Below are positions 696-38,617 of a stretch of 43,532 bases of DNA, one piece after another. Positions within the stretch are counted from its first letter, which is position 1. Every line of letters starts with the position of its first letter. This stretch comes from Macrostomum lignano (lineage: Eukaryota), in assembly GCA_002269645.1 (NCBI GenBank), contig NIVC01003758.1, positions 34,872-78,403 of the forward strand, given 5' to 3'. A model generated the notes under the pieces. That model did not search any database and had not been told where the DNA came from. It saw nothing but the letters and a program-made list of their open reading frames with translations. The translations under genes were made by a program, and so were the position numbers.

Positions 696-1421
696 CTGCG
701 GAGGAAAGTCGCAACACTAGATGTTTATTTCAATGAGGATAAATTAAAACATAACCAAGCAGGTACCAAACTTACCCTCTTCAGGGATCCGGCATAGTTC
801 ATTTAAGTAGTCGGCATCCGAAAACTCGTCAAACTCCGGAAATTGCGACGAACTATTAAAATATAAAGTATCTATATGGTGTCCATTTCGCGAACGCGAA
901 CGGCCCCTCTAGGGTCGTTAACAGCTTCAGCAGCGCGTCCGAAATGATGTAGATTCTCGCTCATAACTCAAACAAAATTTAAGAAGTTATATTGATACTG
1001 CTATACAATAGAGATTGCGCTTTTTAGAGTGTATCCTCTCGGATACAGCTCCCTTGCCGTCTAAGCTTATATCGAAAGTGAAGTTCTTTGTTTAGGATTG
1101 GCTATATTTACCGTCTTTATTCTTCACAACAGAGTTACACAACAGCTGACACAGTTCCCCTAGTGGCATTTTCAGCCTTGGCACCAACTGTTTCAGCTTT
1201 GACTACATTTATCATCCCCCTTTTCATTAGTAGGCCATTGCTATTTACAGGATTTAGAAGACCAACTGTCATTCGCCATCAAAATGAAAAAACTATCGTC
1301 TTGCTACTTGCATGCAAAACTTGAAAAAATCTGGGCGCGGGTTGTCCCTTTGACATTTTGGTAAAAGCATGCGGAATGTTGTTTTTTCATCCGGGCTACA
1401 GCTGCATGCCATTTGCTGAGG

Positions 1422-1431
1422 CTTATATAAG
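1422..1431. promoter_or_regulatory. Palindromic TATA element CTTATATAAG between divergent genes
   Basis: Perfect 10-bp palindrome; plus-strand TATAAG (1426-1431) ends 47 nt before ATG 1478. Confidence 0.55.
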
Positions 1432-1477
1432 GGACTAGTCCCACAGCCGCCTAGCAACAACGACCTGGCTGACCGAG

Positions 1478-2644
1478 ATGGCGTTCTTCCCTGAAGCTGC
1501 GATTGTCTCGAAGGAGGCCCTCGAATGCAAGGATGCCGCAATTATCTTCGGCAAGGCAGAAAAGTGGAACAAACACGAAAACGGACTGCGAACTCTGGCC
1601 TGGAGACCCAGTTCTACATGCCGGGAGCTGCTGCGCTCGTTTTTCAGACCACAAAGCCGGTAGAGGTCTTTCGCGGCATCACCCGAAATGAAGGCCACAG
1701 TCCGGACAGCGGCTCGGAGCTGTGGCGCCGAGAGGGCATGAGTGTCACATTCGCAACAAAAACGTTCTGTGAAACCACATTCGAATGCATCAGGTAATTA
1801 AAGTTATTTGTAATACGTAACTATCTTTTCCTTAATTTTTGAACCACTTTTTTCAATTTTGGAACTCTGTCGCTTGCTTTTCAGAACGGCCGAAAAAATG
1901 ATTGAGGCAATTTTAACGGCTCAGAGGGACACTCATGGACTCGTGCGCCAGGCAAAGATTCCGGAGGACGGAACAACAGCCCCGCCCAGCTGGCTCGGCC
2001 TGCGTGCAAATGTTGCCTGTGCGACATTCTTAGCGGATCTGACGCACAAGATTTACTACGAGGCTCAGCTGCCGGAGTTGTTCGATCGGTCGGGACTGTA
2101 TCATTTAACCTTCCAGGCAGCTTGCTTAATCCGCCCTCGTGCCAACGACAAGTGGAAGGTGTTATTCACCCTTCGCTCTGCCGCGCTGATGGAAGGCGTG
2201 CATGACATGCAGATGTTCCGCATAGTCTCCCGCCAAATGGAAGGTTTACGCCTGGCCAAGAGGGACAACAATGGCCCGCGAGCCGCAGTGCCCGAGTCCG
2301 CCAGCCGGGAGCCAAACAAGTCAAATGTATCGACTGCTGCTGCTGATGCGCCGAGGACGATGCCGCCGCCGAAGAAGTTGCCGCGGATTCGCAAGCGGAA
2401 GGCTGATGCTGCTGCCAGCTCGGACTCTAATATCGTTGAAGCGATTGCGCAGGACCTCATGGAGGCCTGCAAGCCGCCGGTAAAGCAACTTGTGAGTGGT
2501 CCGTCTGGGCGAAAAGCGCCCACAAAGCCAAGAATGCGACCTCCACAGAGCCCGGTTTCAGCTTCTTCTGACGACTCGGAGGAGCAAACTGATGACCTAG
2601 TGGAGGTCCGCGATTCGTCGCCGCCCTTTGGCGCTTTCACCTGA
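1478..2644 (+). CDS. Unknown two-exon viral protein (about 360 aa) with disordered basic/Ser-Pro C-terminus; one frameshift near 1578
   Basis: ATG 1478. A 1-nt shift in the AAAA run (~1577-1580) joins it to the 1525 frame. Intron 1794-1884 (CAG|GTAATT ... CTTTTCAG|A) is phase 2 at both ends and joins FECIR to TAEKMIEA in frame. AATAAA at 2814. Confidence 0.7.
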
Positions 2645-2833
2645 AAAAGCACCAGCTTAGAGCGGACGCTTTAGTGACTTCGTCAAACCCAAGAAAATTA
2701 ACTATTGTCATGGTCCTAGCTTGACCATTGATTTTTGCTTCGCTAGTTAGTCAGAAAAGCTATGCGCTAGCTAGCTAGTTTTTAACCAAAATTTGAAGTT
2801 GAAGTACAAGTTAAATAAACGTGTAACATCTCA

Positions 2834-3448
2834 TTGATTAAAAAGAAATTAAGAAATGTGTTTGTTTCTTGTTCCTTGTCTCTTCCAGAGACTGCTGCAA
2901 CATGTTGTGGGGCTCGACTAGTCATTCCACCAGGCGGGCAGCTGGATCTGTTAAAGTCTAAGCTAATTTCTACCGGACGGGAGGCGAAACTCTATCGTGG
3001 GCGTCCTTCGATGCTTAAAACCCGCTTTTGTGGCTGTTCTGTTCAGCTGTATCCCAAAGGGAAAGTAACAATTTTTGGTGCTAAATCTAAAATCCAAGCA
3101 GTAAGGTGCCTGTGCTTCATAAACGAGTTATGCATCGGTGGTTTAGACTATGAGTCTGTGTGTGTGCAGACAAGTACTTATGCGGGAAGCCTAGATTCAT
3201 CTGTCCGCACTCCGCTCCTGGAGTCCCTGTTTTCGGATACCACTACACTGAAGTTGGAGAGCGGCTATTGTTTAAGCATGGATAAGGAAAATTTCCCTAT
3301 GGCAATCTCCTGCAGGCTTCAATGCAACCCGAGGCTGTTCCTGAACCTGTTCTTTAGTCGGAAATTTATAGTCTGTGGTCCTCAAAATCTCGAGGAACTG
3401 AAGCAAGTGTTGGAGGTTTTTCAACATTTGCCCCAAGCAGCTGTCTAA
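2834..3448 (+). CDS. TATA-binding protein (TBP)-like, two-repeat core; true start unresolved (probable acceptor at 2890)
   Basis: Repeat 1: QLDL...VQLYPKGKVTIFGAKS (cf. TBP KLDL...ALIFSSGKMVCTGAKS). Repeat 2: VQTSTYAGSL...ENFPMAISCRLQCNPRLFLNLFFSRKFIVCGPQNLEELKQVL (cf. IQNMVGSCDV...[40 protein letters not shown]). Confidence 0.85.
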   Translation: MIKKKLRNVFVSCSLSLPETAATCCGARLVIPPGGQLDLLKSKLISTGREAKLYRGRPSMLKTRFCGCSVQLYPKGKVTIFGAKSKIQAVRCLCFINELCIGGLDYESVCVQTSTYAGSLDSSVRTPLLESLFSDTTTLKLESGYCLSMDKENFPMAISCRLQCNPRLFLNLFFSRKFIVCGPQNLEELKQVLEVFQHLPQAAV

Positions 3449-3464
3449 TTATTCACTTCAGCAA

Positions 3465-4085
3465 ATGGCCGCTCAAGTCCGTGCTCAGACTCGAACTTAC
3501 GTGATCGAAGGTCTAATCGGGGCCGGAAAATCTTCCCTTGTCCGCAATCTGGCTCTGATGGCTCGCCTGGAATGCTGGAGTGGAGGGTACGAGTTTGCTC
3601 GGGAGCCGGCGGAATACTACCGAAAGCACCGTTACACGGAGCAAAATCTGCTGCAGCAGTTTTACGATGGTGACGTGTCTGCTTTTGAATTTCAAGTCCA
3701 TGTGTCGCACGAGATGGCGAGACGCGACATGAAGCTCCGCAAAATCGCTACAAAAGGCACGCATCGGTTTATTGTGGCAGACCGACACCTGGGCAGCTGC
3801 TATGCATTTTTAACGCATCTAAAACATCAAGGGCGTTTGAATGGTACCCAGCAAGCAATTCTCGTTAATCAGCTGCAGGTCTTAGAAAAGAAGACAAAGA
3901 CAGTTACACCTCGAGAGGATTGCACCCTGGTGTACCTTGAAATCAACCCGGAGCTGGCACTGCAGCGCATTCGCCAACGAAATCGGCACGGATTCAGTGC
4001 CGCGTTTGCGGCAAACGATTCGGAACCTAGGCAGCACTGCATGCGCATTCGCACGGTGCTTGTTTTCACCCTCTGGAATCGTTGA
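3465..4085 (+). CDS. Deoxynucleoside kinase (dNK/dCK/TK2 family), C-terminus missing after LID
   Basis: P-loop IEGLIGAGKSS, FEFQVH, ADRHLGSCYAF, and LID VYLEINPELALQRIRQRNR. Similarity ends at ~3990. Confidence 0.85.
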   Translation: MAAQVRAQTRTYVIEGLIGAGKSSLVRNLALMARLECWSGGYEFAREPAEYYRKHRYTEQNLLQQFYDGDVSAFEFQVHVSHEMARRDMKLRKIATKGTHRFIVADRHLGSCYAFLTHLKHQGRLNGTQQAILVNQLQVLEKKTKTVTPREDCTLVYLEINPELALQRIRQRNRHGFSAAFAANDSEPRQHCMRIRTVLVFTLWNR

Positions 4086-4349
4086 TTCGCGAGCCAGTCA
4101 ACTCGTTGATTAGCGATCCGCCTAGTGGCTGGAATGCGGCTCTGGAAGAATCAGCGCTGCATGGAAGAGCTAATTTTCTAAAATTTATTCCCACTGCTGC
4201 ACTGGCAACAACAACACAACAACGGGATCTCTGAGGTGCTCGCTTCACTTCAACAGCCGATCTACAGACTTTTCAGCAGGTTACTGCAGCCAGATCTACT
4301 AATGCGAACTTGCATTCATTTAAAGTGTAAGCTAAGTCGTCTGATGCCA

Positions 4350-4382
<33 letters not shown>

Positions 4383-7300
4383 GACCAGCCACCGCTGCAA
4401 CAACAGGAGATTTCAGTTTATTTCAATACCAATATCGTTACGATAACAATTGACGAAGAGTCTGCTGCTGCTGCTGCTGCTGGAGCTCTTCTTTCGCCCG
4501 ACGCCTTTAACCAGTGGTTTTTGCGCGCTGTTGGTGATCTTGTCACTCGACTGGAAAATTTTCAAAAACAAGGCAGCAATTGGCATCTCGAGGCGGTGGA
4601 ACAGGTTGATTTTTTACTCGCCCTGTACAGACGCTCTCGTGCGAGAGCGTCTGTACAGCGCGGTGCAGGAGCTGGAGCACCCGCGGCGGCGGCGGCGGCG
4701 GCGGCGGCCACACCTTTCAAAATTCCGCTGTCACTGGCGAGAAAAGCTGGATCTGTGCTGCTTCTAAAACCAAACAATGCGAACCAGCAGGATTGTTTTT
4801 GCTATGCTGTAGTAGCAAGCGTCTTTCAAAAAGCTGTGCCCCGACCGGCTAGACGGGCCAGCTACAAGCGATGGTTGCAAGTTTTCGATTTCGGTCGAAA
4901 TCCATCCGGTCCTAAACGGCACAATGCACACAGCTACAACAAGTTTCTGAGAAAAAATCCCACTCTTGGCTTACGCATGTTTGTCTGGGATCACGAAAGC
5001 AAATCTGCTAGCTTGTTTTTTTCGAAAAAAACACCAGAAGCTATCTACACGGCAAATTGCCTGTTCATACCACCTTATTCAAGCTTTAAGTTTGGGCACT
5101 ATGTGCATCAAGAATTTGCAAAGCCTGCTAAGTTCTAACACGCGACGACGGCGTTTCTGTCCCGACTGTTTAGCGCCATTTAATCACACTGTGTCCTGGG
5201 ACTTCATCTTGAACGAGCACTGCTGTACTGGCACGTCCGTGCCTCCAACCGAGCCTGCAGCTCAACCAAGGGGCTGTGTATGGCAGTCTGAACCAGAGGG
5301 TCAGTTCCGCGAGATCCGCTTTGTTCCGCGTGAAGAAATGCCAGCTCAAGAGGAGGCTTTTGTGCGCTTCACAGCCGATGAGACGCGACTACCTGCTTTA
5401 TTTGTTATTTATTCAGATCTAGAAACGATTGCAATGAGTCCGGAACAGGCGGCTGCGGCCGGTCACCCGGTTCCCAAACTCGGTAGCGGCATTGTACGAG
5501 AAGTACTCGTACCACTCTGCCTGGGCTACAGATTGGTTACCCAGCCGCAAGACTTCAAAAGCAAGCTGCCTTCATATTGTGCTGGAAAGCCGTGTGAGGT
5601 GCTGTATTCTAGTCCGTGCTCGGTCGGGCCCAATTGCGTGAGCCAGTTTCTTCTAAAATTACGCCAACTAGCTTCGGAAATCATGCACTATGGACGGGTA
5701 GAACTCCACAAACCACTGATGAGAAAGTTTCTTCCCGCACGAAGACTAGTGCTGGAGGCAGCGACAAATTGCCAGTTGTGTCTGCGGGAGTTCGGACCCG
5801 GAGAAGAAGAAGATCAAGCTGTTTTGGACCACTGTCATTTGACAGGCCGTCCTCGTGCTGTTTTATGCCGCTCTTGCAATCGAAAACTAAGTTTACAACG
5901 CCGAAAAATAACAGTTTTTATGCATAACCTGAAAAATTTCGATTCGAAATTTATCATTCGAGAGATCTACGAGACTTTCTCGGGCACCAGCAAGGACATT
6001 CGGCTGAATGTCTTGCCGGAAAACCGTGAGCGGTTTAAGACATTTTCCATTAAGTTTCGACTGCAGGGAGGCAGCACCAGCACGGACGGCATTGACGAGG
6101 CGTGGTTTGAAATTTGTTTCAAAGACACATTTGCCTATTTACCGTCAAGCCTGGCGAGCCTGGCAGGACGTCTTCAACCAGATCAACTCATCTGTACAAA
6201 GGAGCTTCTAAAGTTCTATCCAGGCCTGAGCGAAACGACTCTGTTGCAAAAAGGAGTCTATCCGTACTCATTTGCGGATTCTTTTGAGAAAATGGATTCA
6301 GTTACGCGTCTCCCACCCAGAGAGGCGTTTTTTGACCACCTGAGAGAGGAGCCCTGCTCGCTCGAGGACTACGCCCGGGCCGAAAAAAGCTGGCAAGAAT
6401 TCGGTTGCCGCAGCCTGCGGGACTACACAACAGCATACCTGTCTTTGGACGTGCTGCTTCTGGCGGATGTGTTCGAGGCTTTCCGTAAAACCGGCCTGGA
6501 GGAATACAGCATTGACCCGGCCCACTATTTGGGCGCGCCAATGTACAGCCTCGCCAGCTGCCTACTAACTCTTCAGGAGCCTATTCAGTTAGTCACTGAT
6601 GCGGACATGTACCGTGGCGGCTTCAGTTTTGGTACACGGCACCTGACCACTGCAAACAATCCGCTTGTAGAACCTTTCCGCTGCCAGCTTGACGAGAAAG
6701 AACCGGAGTTTGTGCAGTTGCGGAAAAACGCTCCGGCAAACACTTTTCTTGTTTATCTGGATGCCAATTCACTCTATTCAGCATGCATGGTTCATCCCAT
6801 GCCTTGTGCTGATTTCAAGTGGATGACTTTGCAAGAAATCCGGTCCGTTCCGTGCGACAATGGACTGTCCGCCGATGAACTCGAGGATCCATCAGTGAGG
6901 AGCAAGCTGCTGGACTGGATTTGTAATTTCTGTTCGGCAGACCGGGGCGCCCTGTTCACGGTGGATCTCTACTATCCAAATTTTCTGCACGACTCCACTG
7001 CTGATTTGCCCTTGGCTTTAGGTCACGAAACTGTGACTGAGAGCCGGCTGACAAGAACTCAGCGACAAGACTGGCTACTACTACAGCGGCAGATGAATCC
7101 AAATCGCAGCGCTAACGCAACCTCATACGAGGAGGTCAGCCCATTCAAAAGCCCTACGAAAAAGCTAATCGCTTCGCTGGTGCACAAAAAAACTACGCGG
7201 TGCACTACAGAGCTCTGCGCCTCTATCTGGAGTTGGGACTGCGCGTGACACGAATTCGCCGAGTGCTTGTCTTCACCGAACGCTCGATCTTGCGCTCTTA

Positions 7301-8158
7301 CATCGAGCGCAACATTGAGAGGCGGAAAGCGGCCACGGGGGATTTCGAAAAAGATTTTTTTAAGTTACTCAACAATTCGCTCTTCGGGAAGTTTCTTCAG
7401 CGCGTGCGCGACCGGATGAACTTTCGAATGTGCTCCGACCCAGAGAAGCTGGAGACGCTGGTCAGTATGGAACGCTTCCAAGATGTTGTAATCTACTCTG
7501 AAAATCTCGCGGGAGTTAATCTCGCTCCAAGAAAAGTTACGCTAAACAAGCCGATCATCATTGGCGCCGCAATTCTCGATATTGCTAAGACAATTGTCTA
7601 TGACTTTTATTACAGTCATGTTCAGGCGCACAGCTCTCTGGAGTGCGCGCGCGTCCTCGCTGGCGATACCGACAGCCTGATGATGGCCCTGGTGATGCGC
7701 AAGTCGGGAGAAACCCCGTACGACACTATTTTTAAGGACTTTGTGCAGCAAGGCCTTTTGGACACCAGCAACTACCCGAAGACCCATCCTCTCTACTCTG
7801 ACAGACACAAGGGTCGGCTGATGGCGTGGAAGGATGAATTCGGCGGGCAGCTGGCTATCGAGCTGGCGTTTCTGCGGCCCAAGAACTACTCTTTTTTGAG
7901 GGCCAATGAAGTTGTGCAACAACTGTCGCGCTGCAAGGGGGTGACGAAGACGGTTGCCCGACAGATTAAGCATACTGAGTATGTAAGAACTGTTAACGAG
8001 AGAAGCCTCTACTACGTTCAGCAGCGACGCTTCAGTTCGCAAAACAAGTTGTCTTTTTGCTCGAGCATCGCAAGCTAGCCCTAAGCTCTTTCGACACGAA
8101 ACGTGCTTGGCTGGGCGCGCTCGCCTCTCTACCCTACGGCCACTGGCGGTTGAACTAA
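3989..8158 (+). pseudogene. polB: Protein-primed family B DNA polymerase (Maverick type) with N-terminal zinc finger, endonuclease VII-like insert and 3'-5' exonuclease; broken by frameshifts
   Basis: C2H2/C2HC finger CRVCGKRF..L..H (3998-4050, TAG at 4028), SALHG, GSNW, ExoI YSDLET, DHCHLTG...CRSCN, ExoII HNLKNFD, ExoIII YLSLD, motif A YLDANSLY, motif B KLLNNSLFGK, motif C GDTDS, KNY, C-terminal ALSSFDTKR...PYGH (stop 8156-8158). Frameshifts near 4230, 5105, 7190 and 8055. Confidence 0.93.
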
Positions 8159-8339
8159 TCTATCGCTTTGACTTTTTTAAACCAAGTGTTGATGAGTGTG
8201 CGCTATGCCGTGATTTGACTAAATATAGCGACAGCGAAAACTTGGTCTACTACTAATCTTGCTAAACTGTTAGAGGCCTAGTCAATTTGTTTTTCTACGG
8301 CAGATACGAGGAGGGAAGTAGCTTGGGTGGCTTTAGCAT

Positions 8340-8348
8340 TATAAGTAA
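8340..8348 (+). promoter_or_regulatory. TATAAGTAA motif upstream of dUTPase
   Basis: Same motif as before structural genes; hexamer ends 92 nt before ATG 8437. Confidence 0.5.
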
Positions 8349-8436
8349 AGCGAAAACGATATTTTAAACCTCTACAAGAAACTAACAAACACCTCACCCC
8401 AATCTCTGTTCCAGCTCTATCTGCACACTGCGCAAC

Positions 8437-9015
8437 ATGGACTCGACCGGCTGCTCTTCAGTGGACGAGGAGCTGCGAATCTTCTTGGAGGAAGCCGGAG
8501 CAAAGATTCCGCAACGGGCGACCGAGCGATCGGTTGGCTACGATCTAGCCAGCTTGGAGAAAAAAACCATTACTGCGCAAAGCTGGTGTGTACTCGATAC
8601 CGGAATAAGTATCGATCTGCCAGACGGCACGTATGGTCGAATTGCTTCTCGCTCAGGCCTGGCTGCGCGCTACGGAATCGTTGCCGGCGGCGGAGTTATC
8701 GACCCAGACTACATCGGACAGCTGCAAGTGATTCTTTTCAATCATTCGACTTGTGACTTCAAGGTCGAGCCTGGCGACCGCATCGCTCAATTGGTTTTGG
8801 AGCGTGTCGCTACACCATCTGTTGTTGTTAATCGTGCAGGCAGGCCTGGCAAAAAGGAAGGAGAAGAAGTGAAGACCAGGGCGCACGACGAGGGACTAGT
8901 CAACGACGATGACAAGACCATCCCTGTCCTCGTCGATGAAGAAGAGAACGAAGGACCTATCGAGCCGCCGAAGCGCATTCGCGGAACGGGCGGATTGGGC
9001 AGTACCGGAATTTGA
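8437..9015 (+). CDS. dut: Trimeric dUTPase with acidic insertion before motif 5
   Basis: SVGYDL, GRIASRSGLA, GGVIDPDYIG, GDRIAQLVL and RGTGGLGSTG motifs. Confidence 0.95.
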   Translation: MDSTGCSSVDEELRIFLEEAGAKIPQRATERSVGYDLASLEKKTITAQSWCVLDTGISIDLPDGTYGRIASRSGLAARYGIVAGGGVIDPDYIGQLQVILFNHSTCDFKVEPGDRIAQLVLERVATPSVVVNRAGRPGKKEGEEVKTRAHDEGLVNDDDKTIPVLVDEEENEGPIEPPKRIRGTGGLGSTGI

Positions 9016-9166
9016 ACGCTTTTGCGCGGCGTAATGGGACCTGATAATGATGACACTAACAAATCTAAACGTAGCTAGCACCGCAAACTCAAACTCTAAT
9101 ATTCTCTTGTTTTAAACAACTTCAAAATATACGCTACCACCAATCGACGTAATAGTCAACAGATTG

Positions 9167-9175
9167 TATAAGCAA
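9167..9175 (+). promoter_or_regulatory. TATAAGCAA motif upstream of PLA2/ATPase pair
   Basis: Hexamer ends 51 nt before ATG 9223. Confidence 0.65.
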
Positions 9176-9222
9176 AACAAATTTCCCTACGAGCTATGAC
9201 TTCAAAATATTACTAGCAGAAA

Positions 9223-9659
9223 ATGGTAAGAGACCAGAGCAGGCACTTGAAAAAGAGCGCAAGAAAAACTAAAAAAAATCTCGAACTACTACTACTAGTA
9301 GCCGTAGAGCAAAACGGAATCAGCGACTACAGAGAGGAAGTGGTATTGTAAATTTGGTTATTAACCATTTGCCGTTTGAACTACATCTTCCGGGCTACCA
9401 ATTCTGTGGACCGGGTACTAGGTTGAAAGAACGATTGGCCAAAGGCCAGACCGGGAAAAATAGGTTAGATAGGCTGTGTATGCTGCACGATAAGGCCTAC
9501 GAGAAGAACTCTGAAACGAAAGACCGTCTCGAAGCGGACCGCTTGCTGGAACAGGGCGCGCGAGAAATAGCCCACGATCCAAGCAGTGGTTTGGGTGAGA
9601 AACTAGCCGCCAAATTTGTAGCAAAAGTTATGCAAGTAAAGCAACAAGCGAGCGCCTGA
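9223..9659 (+). CDS. Parvovirus-type phospholipase A2 (PLA2X-like) virion protein with basic N-terminus; frameshift in A run ~9272-9279
   Basis: HLPGYQFCGPGT Ca-binding loop and CMLHDKAY catalytic HD. ATG 9223 joins the PLA2 frame (...RLQRGSGIVNLV) after a 1-nt correction in the A8 run. Confidence 0.85.
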
Positions 9660-9664
9660 GCTAC

Positions 9665-10369
9665 ATGGAGACAAAGCCGCCTATCTACGATTTGCGCCTC
9701 GCGCCTGATTCAACCATCATCGTGGCGGGGCCTTCGATATCTGGGAAGACAGAATGGGTTTTGCGTCTAATCAAAGAAAGAGTAGCCATGTTTAAGAAAC
9801 CACCACAACGGCTAGTCTGGTGTCACGGGACCGATCTTCATGACCAGGAACGCGGGAAAATTCGGGCTTGTTGGGGCAACTCCGAAGGAATACATTTTAT
9901 TCGGGGTTTTACGGGCGCATTGTTAGGGAGCTTACGATCGGGAGATCTTTTGGTTGTTGACGATCTGCAAAGTGAGATTGCTAAATCCGCCGACTTCACA
10001 GCTGTCTTCACCAAACACGCCCACCATTTCCCATTAAACTGCATATACCTATGCCAGAATCTGTTCAGCCGTTCAGACGCGGAGGCACGAACAAGAAGCT
10101 TATCTACAAGCTACATCTGTTTAACCCGCTCGGTACGAGATCGAACCGCAGTTTTGAATCTTGGGAAACAGATGTATCCAAAAAAAAGTAACTATCTCGT
10201 CCAAGTCTACGAAGACGCAACCGATGGAAAACCGTACTCATATCTACTTATCGACTTGCGTCAGGATACGCCAGATTTCTTGCGACTTCGAACAGGCGTG
10301 TTTGCGGGAGAGCTGATGATAGCCTATGGTGGGCCTGGCAACAGAGAACTAAAGGCGCCTGGATTATAA
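9665..10369 (+). CDS. A32/FtsK-like genome packaging ATPase
   Basis: Walker A GPSISGKT, Walker B LLVVDD, HH..N.IYLCQNLF motif. Confidence 0.92.
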   Translation: METKPPIYDLRLAPDSTIIVAGPSISGKTEWVLRLIKERVAMFKKPPQRLVWCHGTDLHDQERGKIRACWGNSEGIHFIRGFTGALLGSLRSGDLLVVDDLQSEIAKSADFTAVFTKHAHHFPLNCIYLCQNLFSRSDAEARTRSLSTSYICLTRSVRDRTAVLNLGKQMYPKKSNYLVQVYEDATDGKPYSYLLIDLRQDTPDFLRLRTGVFAGELMIAYGGPGNRELKAPGL

Positions 10370-10373
10370 GCAA
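10365..10373 (+). promoter_or_regulatory. TATAAGCAA motif upstream of penton, overlapping ATPase stop
   Basis: Hexamer ends 49 nt before ATG 10419. Confidence 0.65.
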
Positions 10374-10418
10374 GCCATGTTGTTTCAAGACTGAACCATC
10401 GCCACCAAGGAAACAAAC

Positions 10419-11429
10419 ATGAGCTTCTACGTTTTTCTTCCTTCAAACGACAAAAGCTACCCATCCAACACTCCAAACGAGTTTCGTGTGCGATTGAAAA
10501 ATCCTCTGAACCTTATCGGACGTTATGGGACCGCGAACGCGTACGAGGTCGCTTTAGTCGAGCTTTTGTGCAGAGGTGCTATAGGAAACATTGGTTATGC
10601 TGCCTCCGATAGGTCAGGGTTATTGCCCTATTCGGTTGATATTAGTCCACATCTTTCAGTGAAGCAGGCTGCTTTGACAAAAATTTGGCAGGGAGGCGAC
10701 CTGGAAGCCTATCTGCTTTGTCGCCCGGAAGAGCGGCAGTACCTGTGGTATCTCCGAAACGGTGGCGCGAGTCAATTAGCAATCCGTTTACCTTCACATT
10801 TCATGCGTGTCTATGGCTTCGATCAGTGGAAAATAGTGCGTGGGAAGGATAGTGATTTCCATAGCATTGAATCTCTTACTCGGAGTCCACTCATCGGTGA
10901 GGAAGGAAGCTATAAAAGCTATTACGAGAGAGCGAAAAGCTCAACTGAATACATAACCGATCCTGATTTCGATTTCCGTCTGAGACCAAGCGAAGCTTTA
11001 GCTCTAATTGGTAGTACAGAGGTGATAATGGGACAGGCGCCTGGGAAGAGCGAGGGGGACCGAGCGCTAGATAAGTATTGGCAGAAGAACAAGGCCTGGA
11101 TGATTAGAGCCATAGCGCTAACATCGCCCAGCGAAAAAATCGTTCGGGGAAAGACTGTCTACATGCACTGCTACACTGACATAATTGAATACCAAGCGGT
11201 TGGCAGTCACCTTGTGCCCCTTCTGCGGATTATGGCGTTGCACCCTCAAACAGGGGGCCAACTTCAGCCCCAAGACGGTATGATCACAAATCCCTACTAT
11301 TTGCCAACGAATCGGCAAAATATCGACGAAATCACCATTCGGTTAGGTGACGAACAGGGAAATCCTCTCACTTTCCAGCCGGATGCACATTGCGTAGTGG
11401 TGCTGCATTTCCGCCAAAAAACCGACTAA
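10419..11429 (+). CDS. Minor capsid protein (penton, single jelly roll)
   Basis: N-terminal FYVFLPSN...NEFRVRL..PL...YEVALVEL and C-terminal YTDIIEYQ.VG...PLLR...PYY.P.....IDEITIRL.DEQG.PL.F...VVLHFRQ, typical of Maverick pentons. Confidence 0.88.
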   Translation: MSFYVFLPSNDKSYPSNTPNEFRVRLKNPLNLIGRYGTANAYEVALVELLCRGAIGNIGYAASDRSGLLPYSVDISPHLSVKQAALTKIWQGGDLEAYLLCRPEERQYLWYLRNGGASQLAIRLPSHFMRVYGFDQWKIVRGKDSDFHSIESLTRSPLIGEEGSYKSYYERAKSSTEYITDPDFDFRLRPSEALALIGSTEVIMGQAPGKSEGDRALDKYWQKNKAWMIRAIALTSPSEKIVRGKTVYMHCYTDIIEYQAVGSHLVPLLRIMALHPQTGGQLQPQDGMITNPYYLPTNRQNIDEITIRLGDEQGNPLTFQPDAHCVVVLHFRQKTD

Positions 11430-11432
11430 ATT

Positions 11433-11441
11433 TATAAGCAA
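11433..11441 (+). promoter_or_regulatory. TATAAGCAA motif upstream of pX-like gene pair
   Basis: Hexamer ends 43 nt before ATG 11481. Confidence 0.65.
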
Positions 11442-11480
11442 ACAAGCACATCATTAAATATAGAGTGAGGAGAGTAGGAT

Positions 11481-11933
11481 ATGGCCGCACGACGATTAAC
11501 GCAAAAAGCGAGAAAGAGTGCATCTTCGATCACAAACTGCGCGGAAATTCTGCACATTGTTGCTCGACTGCGTGATAGAAAAACCAGACGAGATTTCCTT
11601 AAGACTCTCAGTCTAGCAGAAGTGCGTTGTATAGTCGAGTTCTTGATCAATATCGTGCGGCAGCGAGTGCCACTCCGCCACGCGGACCGGAAAAAATTAG
11701 AAAAACATTGTCGACCTATTCAGAAGCTCATTTCGGGTGGTCATTCTCTGACTGAGAAAAAAAGAATCATTGTACAACACGGAGGTTTTCTGCCTTTCCT
11801 CGCGCCGATTGTGGCCGCAGTAACGGCAGCATTACCATCCGTCACCACGGCTCTTGGAATCACCTCCGGCATTGCAGGTACAGCTGCGGGTACTGCTAGT
11901 CTCGTGCGCAGCATACAGAACAAACGAAACTGA
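11481..11933 (+). CDS. Basic core protein with adenovirus pX-like C-terminus (QHGG|FLPFLAPIV)
   Basis: K/R-rich N-terminus, then GG followed by a hydrophobic peptide resembling adenovirus pX RGG|ILPLLIPLIAAAIG. Confidence 0.7.
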   Translation: MAARRLTQKARKSASSITNCAEILHIVARLRDRKTRRDFLKTLSLAEVRCIVEFLINIVRQRVPLRHADRKKLEKHCRPIQKLISGGHSLTEKKRIIVQHGGFLPFLAPIVAAVTAALPSVTTALGITSGIAGTAAGTASLVRSIQNKRN

Positions 11934-11937
11934 AAAT

Positions 11938-12644
11938 ATGGGAACTCGCTCACACGAGGCACTGCAAAAGATGGTTGTTATTCCCATCTCAGAATATTCG
12001 CAGCTGGTCGCGCAAAACAAGTGCGCTGACGAACGAGCAAAGGTTTTGGAGATGCCAAATGACACGATGGGACAAGAACTCGTGCGGATGAAACAGAAAA
12101 TCGATGGGTTAGACGAGATTATTGCTACGGATCAATCTACCCCGAATTCGCCTGCTCGTCTGGCAAGAAACAGAATGGAAAGCAAGCTCCTACAAACACG
12201 CGAGCAGTTTTTGAAGCCAGATGATAACCCTCAAGCGAGTGAAGAGCCGTTAGTCAATAGCGCGGAGGAAGAGAGCGAAACAACACGCATTCCAAAAGCA
12301 CTTCAGGCACGTTGGCGACGTCTTAAAACTTTCATCGAAAATGAGAAAGCAAATCTAGCGGCAAACGGCACCGAACTAACCGAAACGGAGATGCGCGATC
12401 TGATGGACTACGTAGTTCGCGACAAACCCCTGAAGAGGCATGGGGGCGCCTGCCAGGCGGGTTGGAAAACTTTTTAAGTTACCTGCGTCAACGAAAAGCG
12501 GATCCTCAGCTTGTCGGAAAACAATTTCGAACGGAATTGTCAGCTGCAGCAGAGAAAGAGCTACCACCCGCCTTCACCGAGGAAAAAGAAACACGGGACG
12601 AAGAAATGGATTTCCTAGAAAATTACGAGACACTGACAAGCTAA
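11938..12644 (+). CDS. Conserved-type Maverick protein of unknown function; frameshift in T run 12471-12475
   Basis: ATG 4 nt after the pX stop; KMVVIP..EY..L N-terminus. Adding one T joins GWKTF to LSYLRQRKADPQLVG. Confidence 0.65.
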
Positions 12645-12669
12645 GTTTGTAGTTAAATATTGTAGCAGC

Positions 12670-12675
12670 TATAAG
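12670..12675 (+). promoter_or_regulatory. TATAAG motif upstream of 99-aa ORF/integrase
   Basis: Hexamer ends 48 nt before ATG 12723. Confidence 0.55.
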
Positions 12676-12722
12676 CTAACTGGTCGGACGCATCGCGGAT
12701 TGAGTATCAACACACTCTGATA

Positions 12723-13022
12723 ATGGAACTACGCGAAATTTTACGCTTTGTTTTTCATTTGGTTGTGAGACTTTTGCAAGGCTGCTTAGGCGGGGCGCTC
12801 CACCATAACGAGGACACTCCCGACGCGGGCGATATCACCATACAGAACATTAGGTGCTGCATGACGGTGACGCGCTCTGCATCAACTGATAACTTGCCAC
12901 AGAGCAGCGGTGCGGGAGGAATCACCGATACAAAAACCGATGGCAGCGAAAAAGAGACCTCCGATGCGAAAGGCGAAACACCAGAGCCGGCAGCTGTCCG
13001 AAAACGCAAAAGAACGGACTAG
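12723..13022 (+). CDS. Small protein, hydrophobic N-terminus, basic C-terminus (KRKR)
   Basis: 99-aa ORF preceded by the shared TATAAG at the usual spacing; overlaps the integrase start. Confidence 0.5.
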   Translation: MELREILRFVFHLVVRLLQGCLGGALHHNEDTPDAGDITIQNIRCCMTVTRSASTDNLPQSSGAGGITDTKTDGSEKETSDAKGETPEPAAVRKRKRTD

Positions 13023-14178
13023 TTTGAACAACTCGCTAGACGTCAAGAACTTCTTAGACAGACAATTTTACGATTTGGACCGCCCTACTGCTTTTGCGGG
13101 AAGTAAGCAACAGCTATTAAGACATGTTAAAACCCAGTTTCCGTCACTAGAATCAAAACGAGCGGCAGAAATCGTTGACGAATGGGCCCGGGATACCAAA
13201 GAATATAACCTGTTTCGCAAAACTAAACGAATATTCAAAACCCGCAGAATTGGTGTACCACATATCCCTGGTTTTCAATTCCAAATCGACCTGGCTGATC
13301 TCCCTCAATACAAGTCAGAAAACAAGGGATACCGCTACATCCTCGTTTTGATCGATTGTTTCACTCGCGAAGTACGTCTGCGACCTCTACGAACAAAAAC
13401 TGCTAAAGAGGTGGGCGCCGCACTTGAAAATCTGTTTCGTGAAGGCTTCCGACCTCTCTATCTTCAGGGTGACGCGGGAAAGGAGTTCCTAGGGCGTGAA
13501 ACTCAAGCTGTACTAAAACGGGCGGGTGTACGCTTTTTTGTTAGCCAAAGCAATTACAAGGCTGCGATCGCTGAAAGGTTAATCCGTACTCTGAACGAGC
13601 GGCTCAGCCGTTATTTTCGGGCTCGAAACCTAGAACGCTGGTATGACATTCTACCCCAAATGGAACGAAATTTGAACTCAAGCCCTCACCGGGCGCTGTT
13701 TGGTCAGAGTCCTCACAACACGGCGGTGGATCCGCGTCTACAAGGAATCATCGGGTCTGAGATTATAGAGCATGAAGCCTCGCAGCAGCCTCTATCAACA
13801 CTAAAGGTAGGAGACTGGGTAAGAATCGCACGACATCGGGGTGCCTTCGAGAAGGGCTATTCGACAGTGTGGAGCAACACCGTGTTTCGGATCCGTGCTA
13901 CGAATCCTCGCCGAGCAGCGTCGTATAAACTAGAGAATCCGGAAGACGGAAATAGCACACTAGAGGGTTACTTCAATGAGGGAGAACTACAGCGTGTAGC
14001 AAAAGAAAATACGGAGCCGTCAGTCATCGAGCGTGTAGACGCTTACGAACAAGACTCAGACGGTCAGCGGCGGTATTTAGTGAAATGGCAAGGAGTTGAG
14101 GCCTTTAGGAATCAGTGGTTGAAAGAAGGCGAGTTGGATGAGCGAACTCGACGGCTTTTTCGGCGCGTTTATAAGTAA
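12940..14178 (+). CDS. Retroviral-like DDE integrase (c-integrase) with C-terminal chromodomain
   Basis: FQIDLADL, ILVLIDCFTR, LQGDAGKEF, AIAERLIRTL; chromodomain RRYLVKWQG...NQWLKE. Confidence 0.95.
   Translation: MAAKKRPPMRKAKHQSRQLSENAKERTSLNNSLDVKNFLDRQFYDLDRPTAFAGSKQQLLRHVKTQFPSLESKRAAEIVDEWARDTKEYNLFRKTKRIFKTRRIGVPHIPGFQFQIDLADLPQYKSENKGYRYILVLIDCFTREVRLRPLRTKTAKEVGAALENLFREGFRPLYLQGDAGKEFLGRETQAVLKRAGVRFFVSQSNYKAAIAERLIRTLNERLSRYFRARNLERWYDILPQMERNLNSSPHRALFGQSPHNTAVDPRLQGIIGSEIIEHEASQQPLSTLKVGDWVRIARHRGAFEKGYSTVWSNTVFRIRATNPRRAASYKLENPEDGNSTLEGYFNEGELQRVAKENTEPSVIERVDAYEQDSDGQRRYLVKWQGVEAFRNQWLKEGELDERTRRLFRRVYK
14170..14178 (+). promoter_or_regulatory. TATAAGTAA motif upstream of core gene, overlapping integrase stop
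   Basis: Hexamer ends 41 nt before ATG 14216. Confidence 0.65.
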
Positions 14179-14215
14179 ACTGTGAAATTGGAACATAATA
14201 ACAATTAAAAATTTG

Positions 14216-14677
14216 ATGGATCCAATATACCGATTCTATTCTGGACCCACTCAAAGCGGGGGAGGATCCTCCGCCCGAGCGATTCCGATCTACGAAGGCT
14301 ATGGGTTCCTTTCCAACCTCTCTAATCGAGTGTTGATCCCGGTTATGCGGAGTGCGGGAAAGGATCTTTTGGCACGGGGCTTGGAATACCTATCAGGCAC
14401 TAGCAACGAGACAACAAACGTTAATCGCAAACGAAAGCACACGGGAAGCGGTTACAAGATGTCGAGCGCAGCTGTTCCCACAAAACGCAGCCGAAAAAAA
14501 CGTCCTCGGAAAACTATAAGCAAACGGGGTAAGAAAGCTCGCACTCGTGGAAAACCGGCAAAAACCCAGCGAGGAAAGGGTCTAACCAAGAAGAAGCGAC
14601 GAAGGGTGAAGAAAAAGCGGAATCGCAAGGCCGTTGCTGCTAAATCGCTGTTTAGTCTCCTGGAAAACCGAAAATGA
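14216..14677 (+). CDS. Highly basic core/DNA-condensing protein (pVII-like)
   Basis: SGG, GYG|FL and GSG candidate cleavage motifs; K/R-rich C-terminal half; ATGA overlap with MCP. Confidence 0.7.
   Translation: MDPIYRFYSGPTQSGGGSSARAIPIYEGYGFLSNLSNRVLIPVMRSAGKDLLARGLEYLSGTSNETTNVNRKRKHTGSGYKMSSAAVPTKRSRKKRPRKTISKRGKKARTRGKPAKTQRGKGLTKKKRRRVKKKRNRKAVAAKSLFSLLENRK
14515..14523 (+). promoter_or_regulatory. TATAAGCAA motif embedded in core ORF, upstream of MCP
   Basis: Exact 9-mer match; hexamer ends 154 nt before MCP ATG 14674. Confidence 0.45.
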
Positions 14678-16005
14678 ACCAGTTGCTTGGCCCTGACAGT
14701 GTAGTACTAAAAAGCGAATTGGCCCTTTTTGATGCAGCCGCTGTACAGTACAGTGTAGTGGACAGCCAGTATACCCACATTCAGCCGCAACACGGACTCT
14801 CAAAAGGTGCCCCAATCGAGTTCGAAGTCGTCTCCGCAGGGGATGCACTCTACCTGGATCTACAAGAGACGATTCTAAATCTGGCCATACGTGTACGAGA
14901 CTCGGACGGAGTAACCGCTGATGCGACGAAGAACAACGTAGCGCTGACTAATTTGCCTATCGCGAGCCTGTTCCGCGATGTACAACTAACTATTGGAGAC
15001 ACTGTAGTCGAAGGCGGAACCTTCATGTACCCCTACAAAGCCATGCTACTGACGCTTTTAGAATATGGTTCGGATGCTCAAACCTGTGGTCTAACGCCCT
15101 GGGGTTTCTACAAAGACACAGCTGGACAAATGCATTCAGCCGGCGACGCGAACGTTGGCGCTAAACGCCGACGCGCATTGATAGCAGGGGGTCGAGAGTG
15201 TCGCTTATCGGGGCCCTTGTTCTTGGACATGTGCCGCCAGCCGCGGTTTCTGTTGTCTAAAACTCCTGTACAAATAAAATTGATTCCGTCTTCCGCTGCC
15301 TTCGCCCTCATGGTCGGTGCGATAGGTGAAAACCCGCTAAAGAGCTACGAGATAGAGGTGCTAAAGGCCGAGCTCCGTGTACGCTACGTATCCCCCTCGC
15401 CGAGTGTACTCGCTGCGCACGCTGCGGGGTTGAAACAGCACAATGCCATCTATCCAATAAATCAGCTACAGATGAGCACGTTTACTGTTACGAGTGGTAC
15501 GTCTAGCTACACGCGTGAAAATCTCTTCCCAAGCGGCGTTCCGAAACTTCTACTTCTGGCCTTTGTGAGCAACAAAGCGTTCAATGGAAGTGTGGACACA
15601 AACCCGTTTAGATTCGAACATGCCAACCTGAGCAGTTTGGGGGTGTTTGTCAATGGGGAGCCGGTGCCAACAAGACCCCTCGAAACCGACTACAGCGATA
15701 GTGGGGACTGCGTTTTGGAGTACGGGTGGTTTTTGCAACAGCTGGGGTTGCATCTGCGTAACCGCGACTTGGGGTTCACGATGGCAGAGTACAAAGCCGG
15801 CTACACTATCTACGCCTTCGGTCTGGGTAGTGAGGTGGGTGTCGGAGCTGGCGCACAGGTATATAAAGAGGGCAATGTACGATTGGAACTACGCTTCGCG
15901 ACTGCCACGGACAAAGTCTACAACGTCATCGTGGGCGGACTATTCGACAAGCAGCTGCATTTGACGGAGTTCCGCGCCGTGGTACCTGGATCTGTATGGA
16001 AGTAG
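14674..16005 (+). CDS. Major capsid protein (double jelly roll, hexon-like)
   Basis: KSELALF, YLDLQET.L, PIASLF, YPYKAML..LL.Y, YKDTAG, LSGPL..D...Q..FL, NPFRF, GYTIYAF and GNVRLELRF motifs of the Maverick MCP; intact 443 aa. Confidence 0.93.
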   Translation: MNQLLGPDSVVLKSELALFDAAAVQYSVVDSQYTHIQPQHGLSKGAPIEFEVVSAGDALYLDLQETILNLAIRVRDSDGVTADATKNNVALTNLPIASLFRDVQLTIGDTVVEGGTFMYPYKAMLLTLLEYGSDAQTCGLTPWGFYKDTAGQMHSAGDANVGAKRRRALIAGGRECRLSGPLFLDMCRQPRFLLSKTPVQIKLIPSSAAFALMVGAIGENPLKSYEIEVLKAELRVRYVSPSPSVLAAHAAGLKQHNAIYPINQLQMSTFTVTSGTSSYTRENLFPSGVPKLLLLAFVSNKAFNGSVDTNPFRFEHANLSSLGVFVNGEPVPTRPLETDYSDSGDCVLEYGWFLQQLGLHLRNRDLGFTMAEYKAGYTIYAFGLGSEVGVGAGAQVYKEGNVRLELRFATATDKVYNVIVGGLFDKQLHLTEFRAVVPGSVWK

Positions 16006-16589
16006 ATAACACTACTATTCTATCTGGCGTAACTAATGTGTTTTTGCGCTCGGTCTGCCTAAAATTATTGCGTATTTATCCTGATGCAGTTTTTATGGGA
16101 GTTTACCCAAGCAATTCTCTACCAACGATCCCTACTCTAAACACGAGTCCGTACTTTCAAGACACGCGTAACTATTTTTTCATCGTAAACACGGACCCTA
16201 GCAATTTGCCCGGAAAACACTGGGTTGCTGTCTGGGTCTGTGCAGGCCCTATTGGCGCTGTTAGACGAGCTAGGATAGGTGAATACTTTGATCCGCTAGG
16301 TTTGCACCCGCTGCCTGAAATCTCCCAGTGGATGAGCCGAAATTTTGGAGATCCAAAAAACTGGCGTTACACGCGCTATGCGGTGCAGGATCCCCGTACC
16401 GCCCACTGTGGAGCCTGGATTCTGTTCTATCTGTTTTTTAAACTTGCTAGTGGAAAGGATCTAAATTCGTTCATCCACTGGGTGATGCGACAACATGGTC
16501 GGGCTCGCAGCAGCCCTTTCTCGCGCGCGTTTTCCTCTCTGAGCTTTTTTCTCAAGCATGTTCTTCAACCCCTACTGCGCCGCCGGTAA
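15996..16589 (+). CDS. Adenain/Ulp1-like (clan CE) cysteine maturation protease
   Basis: IVNTD...PGKHWVAV (His), EYFDPLG (Asp), VQ....HCGAWIL (Gln, Cys). Confidence 0.93.
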   Translation: MEVDNTTILSGVTNVFLRSVCLKLLRIYPDAVFMGVYPSNSLPTIPTLNTSPYFQDTRNYFFIVNTDPSNLPGKHWVAVWVCAGPIGAVRRARIGEYFDPLGLHPLPEISQWMSRNFGDPKNWRYTRYAVQDPRTAHCGAWILFYLFFKLASGKDLNSFIHWVMRQHGRARSSPFSRAFSSLSFFLKHVLQPLLRRR

Positions 16590-16882
16590 AGAGCGAGCGT
16601 TTCACTGTTTTAATGCAAGCTTGACCAGATAGTTTATTATCCAGACAAAAAATATAAAAGCTTTCATCAACAAACGAACTAATTCACAAAAGCATTGTGG
16701 CAATAGAGCGATGCGTGTGTATGTGCCTTTTTTATTTGGCTGTGACACAAACGGTCGCAGCATTGAACGACCACGTATGTAGAAGAAAGAGTGATGCTAG
16801 AAAGATCATGACGGGGACGAGATTTGGTAACGCGCCTGTGCAGGATGGAAATTCATCGTCTATAACCTAGAACTTTGTATTA

Positions 16883-16996
16883 GTTTTGCTATGCAAAAAC
16901 AGGCTATGCACGTATCCCCATTGAACTAGTGCTTGGAACTTCCTATTGATTTCGCCATGTAAAAACGAGCTATGGGCGTAAAAAACGCTTACTACT
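16883..16996 (+). repeat. Right terminal region of element 1 with subterminal direct repeats
   Basis: GTTTTGCTATGCAAAAACAGGCTATG (~16883) and GATTTCGCCATGTAAAAACGAGCTATG (~16948), then ...CGCTTACTACT terminus. Confidence 0.65.
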
Positions 16997-17194
16997 AACA
17001 TATCTGCTGTGTTCCAAACGCCCCAAATGAAAAATACAAAATAAAGGATGCACTTTACAACGTTGTGTATTTCTCGATATAGAGTTGGTAATAAGGAATA
17101 TTTAGTAATAAAGATAAAAAACTGCTCTATTTCGTTCGAAGTATACAACTACTAAGACAAAAACGAAGTTCAAATCAGTGATGTTAGAGTGGCG

Positions 17195-17295: not shown

Positions 17296-17609
17296 CCAAC
17301 CATGAGCGGATGGGATTGCGCTATTGAGAAATTTCGTAGGACCTGAGGTCCGGATAGAGAGGCATCTCGAGCCCGCATGTAGCCGGAGATGCCAAGGCTC
17401 GAGGGGTATTGCTAAAATTTAATTCTATGACTCTTGGGAAGTTGAGAGAAGTTACAAGCTACATATAGTTTACAAAATATTATTATAATTTTTGTTTGCT
17501 CCCCAAAAGGGGCGCTGATTTCTAGTGTATTGCTAAAAATCGAAATGTATCTTACTTGTCACATGGAATGTTGCTATGCTCTAAAAGAAACATAGGTTAG
17601 ACCTCGAGC

Positions 17610-18147
17610 GTGGACACGAACCCGTTTAGATTCGAACATGCCAACCTGAGCAGTTTGTGGGTGTTTGTCAACGGGGAGCCGGTGCCTCTCGAAACCGACT
17701 ACAGCGATAGTGGGGACTGCGTTTTGGAGTATGTGTGGTTTTTTCAACAGCTGGGGTTGCATTTGCGTAACCGCGACCTGGGGTTCACGATGGCAGAGTA
17801 CAAAGCCGGCTACACTATCTACGCTTTCGGACTGGGTAGTGAGGTGGGTGTCGGAGCTGGCGCACACGTACGAGTATATAAAGTAAAGAGGCCAATGTAC
17901 AATTGGAACTATATGCTTCGCGACTGCTACAGACAAAGGGCCAGTTCTATAAAGCCATCGTAACATAAGATCGATCTTAGCTCCTATCTTCGCAGTGCAA
18001 AAGTTCCGAAGTGCGATCGAACTTGCGCTACGACAGCTCTATAGTACGACCCCAAAGTCTACAACGTGATCATGGGTGGGCCATTTGACAAGCAGCTGCA
18101 TCTGACGGAGTTCCTCAACGTTGGTACCTGGATCTGTATGGAAGTAG
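17610..18147 (+). pseudogene. MCP C-terminal fragment, frameshifted, MITE-interrupted
   Basis: DTNPFRFEHANLSSL...GYTIYAFGLGSEVGVGAGA, near-identical to 15592-16005. Confidence 0.9.
17938..18053. mobile_element. 116-bp MITE, Harbinger-like GGG...CCC ends, AAA target duplication
   Basis: Absent from the intact MCP (GACAAAGTC). 18-bp imperfect TIR (13/18) GGGCCAGTTCTATAAAGC; AAA at 17935-37 and 18054-56. Confidence 0.65.
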
Positions 18148-38137: not shown

Positions 38138-38208
38138 ACATACACCAACCCCTCGCACGCGCCGCAGGCGCGAAGGGTCTTTTTCTGTTACTAAAAATAG
38201 AACAAAAA

Positions 38209-38607: not shown

Positions 38608-38617
38608 CAATATAAAA

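Follow-up and report, generated by a model that had tools for sequence, protein, structure and literature searches.

In beta- and gammaherpesviruses, virus-encoded mimics of the TATA-binding protein (TBP)—ORF24 of KSHV (Kaposi's sarcoma-associated herpesvirus) and murine gammaherpesvirus 68 (MHV68), BcRF1 of Epstein–Barr virus (EBV) and UL87 of human cytomegalovirus (HCMV)—act on the TATT boxes of late genes (PMC4893493, PMC12529657), and, according to a herpesvirus review (PMC12529657), BcRF1 binds TATT no differently from TATA in vitro. This viral pre-initiation complex with its TATT box is the closest working analogue of the system described here, which is not a member of it. The system lies in a 43,532-nucleotide (nt) stretch of the genome of the flatworm Macrostomum lignano (GCA_002269645.1, contig NIVC01003758.1, positions 34,872–78,403 of the forward strand; hereafter the window), whose first ~17000 positions are one Maverick/Polinton with every gene on the + strand. 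By content the element resembles other Mavericks, Polintons and adintoviruses (Starrett et al. 2021, PMC8502044), with which it shares terminal inverted repeats and genes for protein-primed DNA polymerase B (pPolB), rve integrase (INT), ATPase, capsid, pX/VI-like and phospholipase A2 (PLA2) proteins. In PMC8502044, TBP is a figure-legend label without a role, the main text contains neither 'promoter' nor 'splic', and one supplement contains no TBP, TATA, TFIIB or Macrostomum. That label was the only TBP found for a Maverick-like virus in a literature search that left subscription papers and Repbase outside its scope; TATA-binding proteins are mentioned in mirusvirus-like elements (PMC10675990).

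The window element encodes a divergent TBP, and its structural genes are preceded by TATAAG(C/T)A boxes instead of the canonical TATA box of its early unit ('early' and 'late' are labels that we assigned by gene content). We lean towards a reading in which the viral TBP reads these boxes as an early-to-late switch in a nuclear Maverick transcribed by RNA polymerase II (Pol II). An earlier interpretation of the same letters (the sequence-only reading) had proposed a self-encoded TBP acting on a dedicated promoter; its observation is partly confirmed and its interpretation partly supported.

Non-canonical TATA boxes of the structural genes

The boxes of the element are the following, with distances counted to the ATG.

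1424..1431, + strand: TATA box of the early unit, canonical in sequence (TATATAAG), −54 from the gene-1 ATG; canonical here in 5/5 subfamily copies
8340..8348, + strand: TATAAGTAA box, −97 from dUTPase; slot kept in 2/8 clade-A copies
9167..9175, + strand: TATAAGCAA box, −56 from the PLA2-like gene (then ATPase); from the motif scan
10365..10373, + strand: TATAAGCAA box that overlaps the ATPase stop, −54 from the minor capsid gene; 8/8 copies, −43 to −54
11433..11441, + strand: TATAAGCAA box, −48 from the pX/VI-like gene; 7/8 copies
12670..12678, + strand: TATAAGCTA box, −53 from orf99, a frame overlapping the integrase gene; the seventh site
14170..14178, + strand: TATAAGTAA box, −46 from orf153, built from the last integrase codons; 6/8 copies
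14515..14523, + strand: TATAAGCAA box inside orf153, −159 from the major capsid protein (MCP) gene; 8/8 copies, −124 to −165

The motif TATAAGYAA occurs six times in the window, always on the + strand and always within 8340–14523, against 0.78 occurrences expected (0 of 100 shuffles reached six). The shorter TATAAG(C/T) was found seven times in sense and never in antisense orientation in 8200–16600, at no sense position in 1400–8200, and three times in each orientation in 20.7 kb of flanks. The sequence-only reading had seen this motif before nearly every late gene or gene pair at near-constant spacing. The excess holds, although only six of the ten packaging-block genes have a box of their own—ATPase, orf179, INT and the protease (PRO) lack one, each lying close behind a boxed gene—and the spacing holds at five of the seven sites (−46 to −56), but not before dUTPase and MCP.

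The pattern extends to five subfamilies of clade A, to which the window element belongs. Among them TATAAG is found 37 times in sense and 2 times in antisense orientation, with C or T as the next letter in 34 of the 37, and the TATAAG(C/T) slots are held across all five. The box before gene 1 matches TATAWAWR in 5/5 subfamilies, in contrast to the non-canonical boxes of the structural genes. Within orf153, the internal box uses the same Ile and Ser codons in 5/5 subfamilies amid variable neighbouring codons, which points to selection on the DNA. A TATAAGG found 134–140 nt before PRO was set aside as a by-product of the conserved YKEG codons of the capsid gene; the window reads TATAAAG there.

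A divergent TBP encoded by the element

2889..3448, + strand: TBP-like exon with two repeats; frame break near 2908 in the window copy

This frame is a real, divergent TBP with a two-repeat saddle. Searched alone, it stays below the gathering score of the Pfam TBP family (PF00352; 20.8–21 bits against a cut-off of 22.9), and its 13 PDB matches are all TBPs (best E 0.14). A profile built from nine Maverick TBP relatives gave TBPs as 35 of 36 PDB matches (E 8e-17 to 1.4e-13); PF00352 was matched by 9/9 profile members, and its cut-off was passed by clade B copies and by the TBPs of loci L052, L053, L057, L061 and L070. The predicted model (pLDDT 71.8, pTM 0.50) had TBPs as its top Foldseek matches (prob 1.0). 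A word-based homologue search with the window TBP confirmed 0 of 51 candidates. The domain is under purifying selection, with dN/dS of 0.15–0.20 in four of six TBP pairs among relatives (the remaining two are saturated).

Residue numbers are given in what we take to be yeast numbering, and residue roles are likewise presumed. As in the cellular TBP/TRF family (PF00352), the two-repeat saddle goes with E188, F190 and F207, which are present in 12/12 Maverick TBPs of the alignment. Clade A differs from that family at five positions (P99 for F99, Q114 for L114, Y116 for F116, L69 for N69 and T/S159 for N159), and F99 is found in 0/12 Maverick TBPs, although its column moved between two alignments. 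The set of four DNA-kinking phenylalanines is thus incomplete in clade A (F190 and F207 kept, F99 and F116 replaced by P and Y), the central Asn pair N69/N159 is replaced, and the acidic TFIIB stirrup keeps E188 with D in place of E186 in the alignment. Because of this pattern of retention, the C-terminal repeat looks like the working half and the N-terminal repeat looks rebuilt. A quick tree placed the Maverick TBPs on a long branch apart from cellular TBPs. Environmental TBP-like proteins with the F99-to-P change (P0077, P0103, P0107, P0115, P0157, P0158, P0074, P0133 and P0037) group with clade A in that tree (support 88); a search of viral contigs with P0107 found no TBP relative.

A predicted gene-1/TBP fusion

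1478..1793, + strand: gene 1 exon 1; frame break near 1633 in the window copy, also against public contigs
1794..1884, + strand: gene 1 intron 1, 91 nt, GT..AG; skipped in contigs of runs X1, X2 and X5, not X15
1885..2644, + strand: gene 1 exon 2, with a folded part, a low-complexity linker and the acidic tail of the short form
2492..2888, + strand: predicted intron 2, from a phase-0 donor within exon 2 to a phase-0 acceptor; it would join gene 1 and the TBP exon
2814..2819, + strand: AATAAA, which by sequence may be the poly(A) signal for the short form of gene 1; the end of an X2 contig at 2828 is a weak hint

The sequence-only reading had treated the TBP as a free-standing gene starting at 2834. 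Its identification as a divergent two-repeat TBP stands; the start and the free-standing gene do not, as the open frame (2819–3445) has its first ATG at 3011 or later and the coding part begins at 2889, after a splice acceptor ending at 2888. We consider it probable that the frame is exon 3 of a gene-1/TBP fusion joined by cis-splicing, the TBP forming the C-terminal domain of a spliced gene-1 product. All clade-A copies examined open the TBP frame at a pyrimidine tract plus AG, and the donor within gene-1 exon 2 (2492 in the window) and the acceptor are both phase 0 in 7/7 copies from five subfamilies. The donor falls on a short conserved peptide inside the otherwise low-complexity linker. 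In one copy (L029) the splice would link a donor side ending in PPAKAL to an acceptor side starting with RLVLLIF, and the unspliced clade-B TBP begins MSPPATALRVSNLV; this comparison points to a splice that restores the homologous start of the TBP domain.

Four public runs (X1, X2, X5 and X15), which we guess to be RNA, were compared with the window. Contigs of three of these runs, from two studies (X1, X2 and X5), lack intron 1, and X15 retains it; the early unit is spliced at intron 1. For the short gene-1 form, an X2 contig reaches 2828, just behind the AATAAA. A spliced leader as the start of the TBP exon is unlikely. The published Macrostomum spliced leader has 43 exact matches in the host genome (G000, 764 Mb), and it could supply the Met because it ends in ATG and the acceptor is phase 0; this start was demoted once the conserved phase-0 cis donor had been found, and the leader letters were not seen among the 24 loose ends of public-run contigs listed (54 more lay outside these).

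Gene 1 itself was considered as a single-strand binding protein similar to T7 gp2.5 or poxvirus I3, which failed every direct test: searches of PDB, Pfam and PHROGs were blank, fold searches were empty and a comparison with T7 gp2.5 gave no match. Its Atlas leads, all under 0.9, were Pox_I3 and DUF2738 clusters (both 0.77, shares 12% and 10%), and its predicted model has a pLDDT of 44. Acceptor-like pyrimidine tracts plus AG also lie just 5' of the deoxynucleoside kinase (dNK) and dUTPase genes (3450–3464 and 8400–8416), and the early block may use further alternative splicing. In two subfamily copies, the TBP frame reads without a stop into the dNK frame (L034:4440-5846, 469 aa; L039:4872-6290, 473 aa).

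Relatives in the host genome and elsewhere

A TBP is not confined to this element: clades B and C of the host genome and outside loci also carry one. The window TBP has 76 matches in the host genome (82/82 candidates scored). Ten long clade-A regions examined were all Mavericks in the same gene order, with TBP in nine (not in C4948). Clades B and C place it at the end of the structural block, and the clade-B TBP matches the N-terminal part of a Macrostomum lignano protein in UniRef. Their boxes read CTTAAGAA and C(T/A)TAAGA, with a canonical TATAAAAG at the clade-C TBP gene. Clade D (52 ATPase matches) has canonical TATAAATA boxes in 9 kb of one copy and no TBP match nearby in searches of the host genome, two of which scored 150/330 and 150/201 candidates.

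Of 41 outside loci, 30 have a TBP match; a single assembly bin accounts for 29 of these, and L052 comes from a different bin. In the 29-locus bin the TBP gene adjoins a TFIIB-like gene (Zn_Ribbon_TF matches in 4/4 scanned, one above cut-off) and the structural boxes read TTTAAGAA. In four loci of another host (L053, L057, L061 and L070, at about 6300–9900), the adjacent TBP and TFIIB-like genes stand head-to-head with a capsid gene, and the TFIIB-like gene has a TATAA box 61–72 nt upstream; L053–L057 carry two capsid genes in tandem. With the L061 gene as query, no TFIIB-like gene was found in the host genome, which is not proof of absence. PC4-like genes occur in clade C (L042:1702-2388) and in the TBP-less element L044 (11373–11885), with Pfam PC4 E of 3e-5 and 3e-3, below cut-off. 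The 39 Maverick capsid loci L046–L084 lie within five bacterial genome bins and are probably eukaryotic DNA binned with bacteria.

A very abundant type in the host genome (G000:C593; L023/L024) lacks dNK and most of pPolB while keeping gene 1, TBP, the whole structural block and all boxes, and is likely a non-autonomous form. Comparison of L029/L030 with L032/L031 showed early modules at dS 1.2–2.0 and nearly identical late modules (dS 0.06–0.09), by sequence a module swap by recombination. Searches of viral contigs with the window MCP or with A4 as query gave no capsid relative; L044 alone was found among viral contigs, and a metagenome scan gave a single 1.5-kb piece.

Proposed switch and its alternatives

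Under the reading that we favour, the Maverick would be transcribed in the nucleus by Pol II from two classes of promoter. The early unit, with its canonical TATA, would be read by host TBP, and its transcript, spliced at intron 1 as shown above, would give a short gene-1 protein with an acidic tail; use of the internal donor, as predicted from the conserved splice sites, would give a longer protein ending in the TBP domain. TBP binds with a polarity in which its N-terminal half faces the 3' half of the box. The rebuilt N-terminal half would then face the part in which TATAAG(C/T)A departs from TATAWAWR, and the viral TBP would bind more strongly than host TBP to the structural-gene boxes, recruit host TFIIB and Pol II, and switch on the capsid, packaging and integrase genes. 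The boxes may descend from ordinary Maverick TATA boxes in the same slots that acquired G at position 6 by drift after a viral TBP had come in.

In a tally of hand-listed gene starts from 11 elements picked as representatives (40 genes from TBP-bearing and 32 from TBP-less elements), canonical boxes were outnumbered by YWTAAG in five of the six elements with a TBP and in none of the five without one (Fisher p 0.015), and the gene counts were 24:3 and 3:10, respectively, with the remaining genes neither. The link between these boxes and the TBP gene is suggestive only, because the YWTAAG class was drawn after viewing the data, the elements are related and not independent, and four of the five TBP-less controls are partial loci, leaving L044 as the only complete one. 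Furthermore, L053 and L061 are AT-rich and CTTAAG is palindromic. L044 is bounded by inverted repeats and gave no match in a TBP search, and it carries boxes in the same slots (TATATAAAC before ATPase, TATAAAAC before INT and TATATAAGAG before the minor capsid gene), including an exact TATAAGCAA lying 36 nt upstream of the orf153 counterpart. The box slots are thus ancestral and older than the TBP, and the motif is not strictly dedicated, since it can occur without a TBP. The co-occurrence of box and TBP that the sequence-only reading had put up for checking tends in its favour: early boxes are canonical and structural boxes non-canonical within the family, and the element counts link YWTAAG with a TBP gene. 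L044 speaks against a strictly dedicated promoter.

These limits count against the proposed switch, as do several further points. In clades B and C the TBP ends the structural block, and in clade B the boxes upstream of TBP are of the late type, so that a simple early factor fits poorly; the arrangement suggests feedback rather than a clean early factor in these clades. Only 5 of 21 canonical contact positions are kept in the window TBP (two of the 21 precede the aligned piece), and the Foldseek fit of its model is loose (TM ~0.4, rmsd ~8). No contig in the four public runs contains the gene-1/TBP joint (2491/2889), an X1 contig is unspliced across 2510–3032, and an X2 contig extends across the early TATA from upstream of 904. 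Finally, PDB entries 1qn5 and 1qn3 report crystals of wild-type TBP on boxes carrying one change each, G(−26) or C(−25), so that host TBP could itself be the reader of the boxes.

This last point, together with the boxes of L044 and the loss of N69, N159 and F99 in the window TBP family, favours an alternative in which host TBP or TFIID reads the boxes as weak TATA elements and the viral TBP is a decoy for TBP partners, a repressor of early promoters or a damper of host transcription. We consider it unlikely, if somewhat less so than the remaining alternatives: it leaves unexplained both the split between canonical early and non-canonical structural boxes in 5/5 subfamilies and the split between TBP-bearing and TBP-less elements, and F190/F207 are invariant.

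The letters of the motif raise another explanation. (A/T)TAAG is a late start motif of the baculovirus and nudivirus kind, and virophages use the late promoters of their helpers; the Maverick could be virophage-like, its boxes serving the polymerase of a helper DNA virus and its TBP acting only early or being helper-related. TAAG is indeed common to all TBP-bearing elements, with variable letters before it (TATAAG, CTTAAG, CATAAG and TTTAAG). Against this, TBP-less relatives have a canonical TATA in the same slots and at the same distance, which points to TATA ancestry; the element is spliced and hence transcribed by Pol II; and no helper virus was seen, although no search for one was made. 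We therefore regard a helper polymerase as improbable. Least probable of all is a role of the TBP domain in replication or genome-end binding within the gene-1 fusion, with gene 1 possibly binding single strands and the boxes unrelated, for which the fusion layout, the dNK and pPolB neighbours (in C297 and C362 the TBP frame continues into that of dNK) and the Atlas leads of gene 1 speak, yet TBP is free-standing in other Mavericks, in some beside a TFIIB-like gene, and the single-strand-binding idea failed as described above.

Gene content and surroundings of the element

The gene order is gene 1, TBP-like frame, dNK, pPolB, dUTPase, PLA2-like, ATPase, minor capsid, pX/VI-like, orf179, orf99, integrase, orf153, major capsid and protease. 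Beyond the features listed above, the element contains:

3465..4085, + strand: deoxynucleoside kinase; Pfam dNK E 2e-15
4302..8153, + strand: protein-primed DNA polymerase B; Pfam DNA_pol_B_2 (PF03175) E 1e-13; in several pieces in the window copy
8437..9015, + strand: dUTPase; Pfam E 9e-34
9223..9659, + strand: small virion-type gene with a parvovirus-like phospholipase A2 domain; Pfam Phospholip_A2_4 E 2e-9 on 9330–9656
9665..10369, + strand: A32-like packaging ATPase; Pfam Pox_A32 E 0.0019, below cut-off; 42% to the L044 ATPase
10419..11429, + strand: probable minor capsid protein; slot conserved, Pfam blank
11481..11933, + strand: adenovirus pX/VI-like core protein; Pfam Adeno_PX E 0.0029, below cut-off
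11938..12477, + strand: orf179, conserved; frame break near 12441
12940..14178, + strand: rve integrase with chromodomain; Pfam rve (PF00665) E 1e-10, Chromo E 0.002
14216..14677, + strand: orf153, basic core-type protein, from the sequence
14674..16005, + strand: major capsid protein; matches the capsid frame of L044 (30% identity, E 7e-65), which has 2855 relatives
15996..16589, + strand: probable adenain-like protease; slot conserved, Pfam blank
16813..17008, no strand: right terminal inverted repeat; window 16813–17002 matches both ends of the sister copy C1680

Hallmarks of a Maverick that are present include terminal inverted repeats, pPolB, rve integrase, an A32-like ATPase and a major capsid protein. 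The ends of C1680 are 98% inverted over 185 nt, and the left repeat of the window element lies upstream of the window. The frames at 10419..11429 and 15996..16589, which gave no match in a Pfam scan, are kept in the expected Maverick slots, and we take them from their position to be minor capsid and protease. In the PLA2-like gene of the window copy, the domain is out of frame with the ATG at 9223, and the 9223 frame contains a stop. Public-run contigs differ from the window copy at the frame breaks near 1633, 2908, 5106, 6612, 7185, 8040 and 12441, which may be lesions of this copy or assembly errors. A joint from 16900 to 904 in X1, considered as a circle, was set aside because the terminal repeat can produce such a joint.

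Just beyond the right terminal repeat lie a degenerate second MCP end and PRO (17568–18779, 82–88% identity). A second, AT-rich Maverick-type element (37873–43532) starts AGTAGT with a hairpin-like terminal repeat and shows a different start motif, TATAAA directly 5' of the ATGs at 38611, 39676 and 41162; a TBP search found no match in the portion inside the window. Between the two elements are two host transporter genes, presumably SLC26/prestin-like (29093–33093, − strand; 36324–37877, + strand), one with introns of 22-, 23- and 28-nt tandem arrays, and a THAP-like frame (34139–34552, − strand).

Comparison with known systems

Nucleocytoviricota also encode divergent viral TBP folds (the African swine fever virus (ASFV) B263R homologue and those of mimivirus and phycodnavirus), and the best BFVD matches among them have E 5e-5 to 9e-4; identity is 10–20%. 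Those viruses mostly bring their own RNA polymerase. New here are the predicted fusion exon, the contrast of early and late boxes across subfamilies and the TBP-less controls. The conserved promoter split with an element-encoded TBP would offer a direct handle on the timing of capsid genes in Mavericks, whose TBPs are natural variants with a possibly shifted box preference.

It is possible, though we hold this as doubtful, that many animal Mavericks conduct late transcription themselves, using a viral basal kit smaller than any other known (TBP, joined in some by TFIIB) that has evolved together with a TATA variant of their own, and that in the flatworm clade alternative splicing replaces the acidic tail of the first early protein, which may be a DNA-binding replication protein, with the TBP domain, tying capsid expression to genome replication. 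If so, this would be regulatory evidence for a lytic programme of these 'transposons', whose virions in animals are described as not observed in PMC8097293, and it would provide a natural library of orthogonal TBP–promoter pairs.

The likeness to the herpesvirus system, known here from sequence alone, spans very different genomes, the Maverick being a 17-kb integrating element. As in the accounts of ORF24 and BcRF1 cited above, a virus-encoded TBP fold would sit inside a larger protein and work with host Pol II, and a one-letter TATA variant precedes structural genes while early genes have a canonical TATA (in the Maverick, judged by its boxes). The changed letter differs, being G at position 6 in the Maverick and T at position 4 in the herpesviruses. 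A general Pfam scan suggested none of the five other factors of the six-member herpesvirus late complex (ORF18/24/30/31/34/66), for which no dedicated search was made. The Maverick TBP keeps the TFIIB-side glutamate, whereas a heading in PMC12529657 describes the ORF24 model as incompatible with TFIIB binding. If the proposed switch is real, a double-jelly-roll virus a tenth the size would have arrived independently at the TBP-mimic strategy of the herpesviruses.

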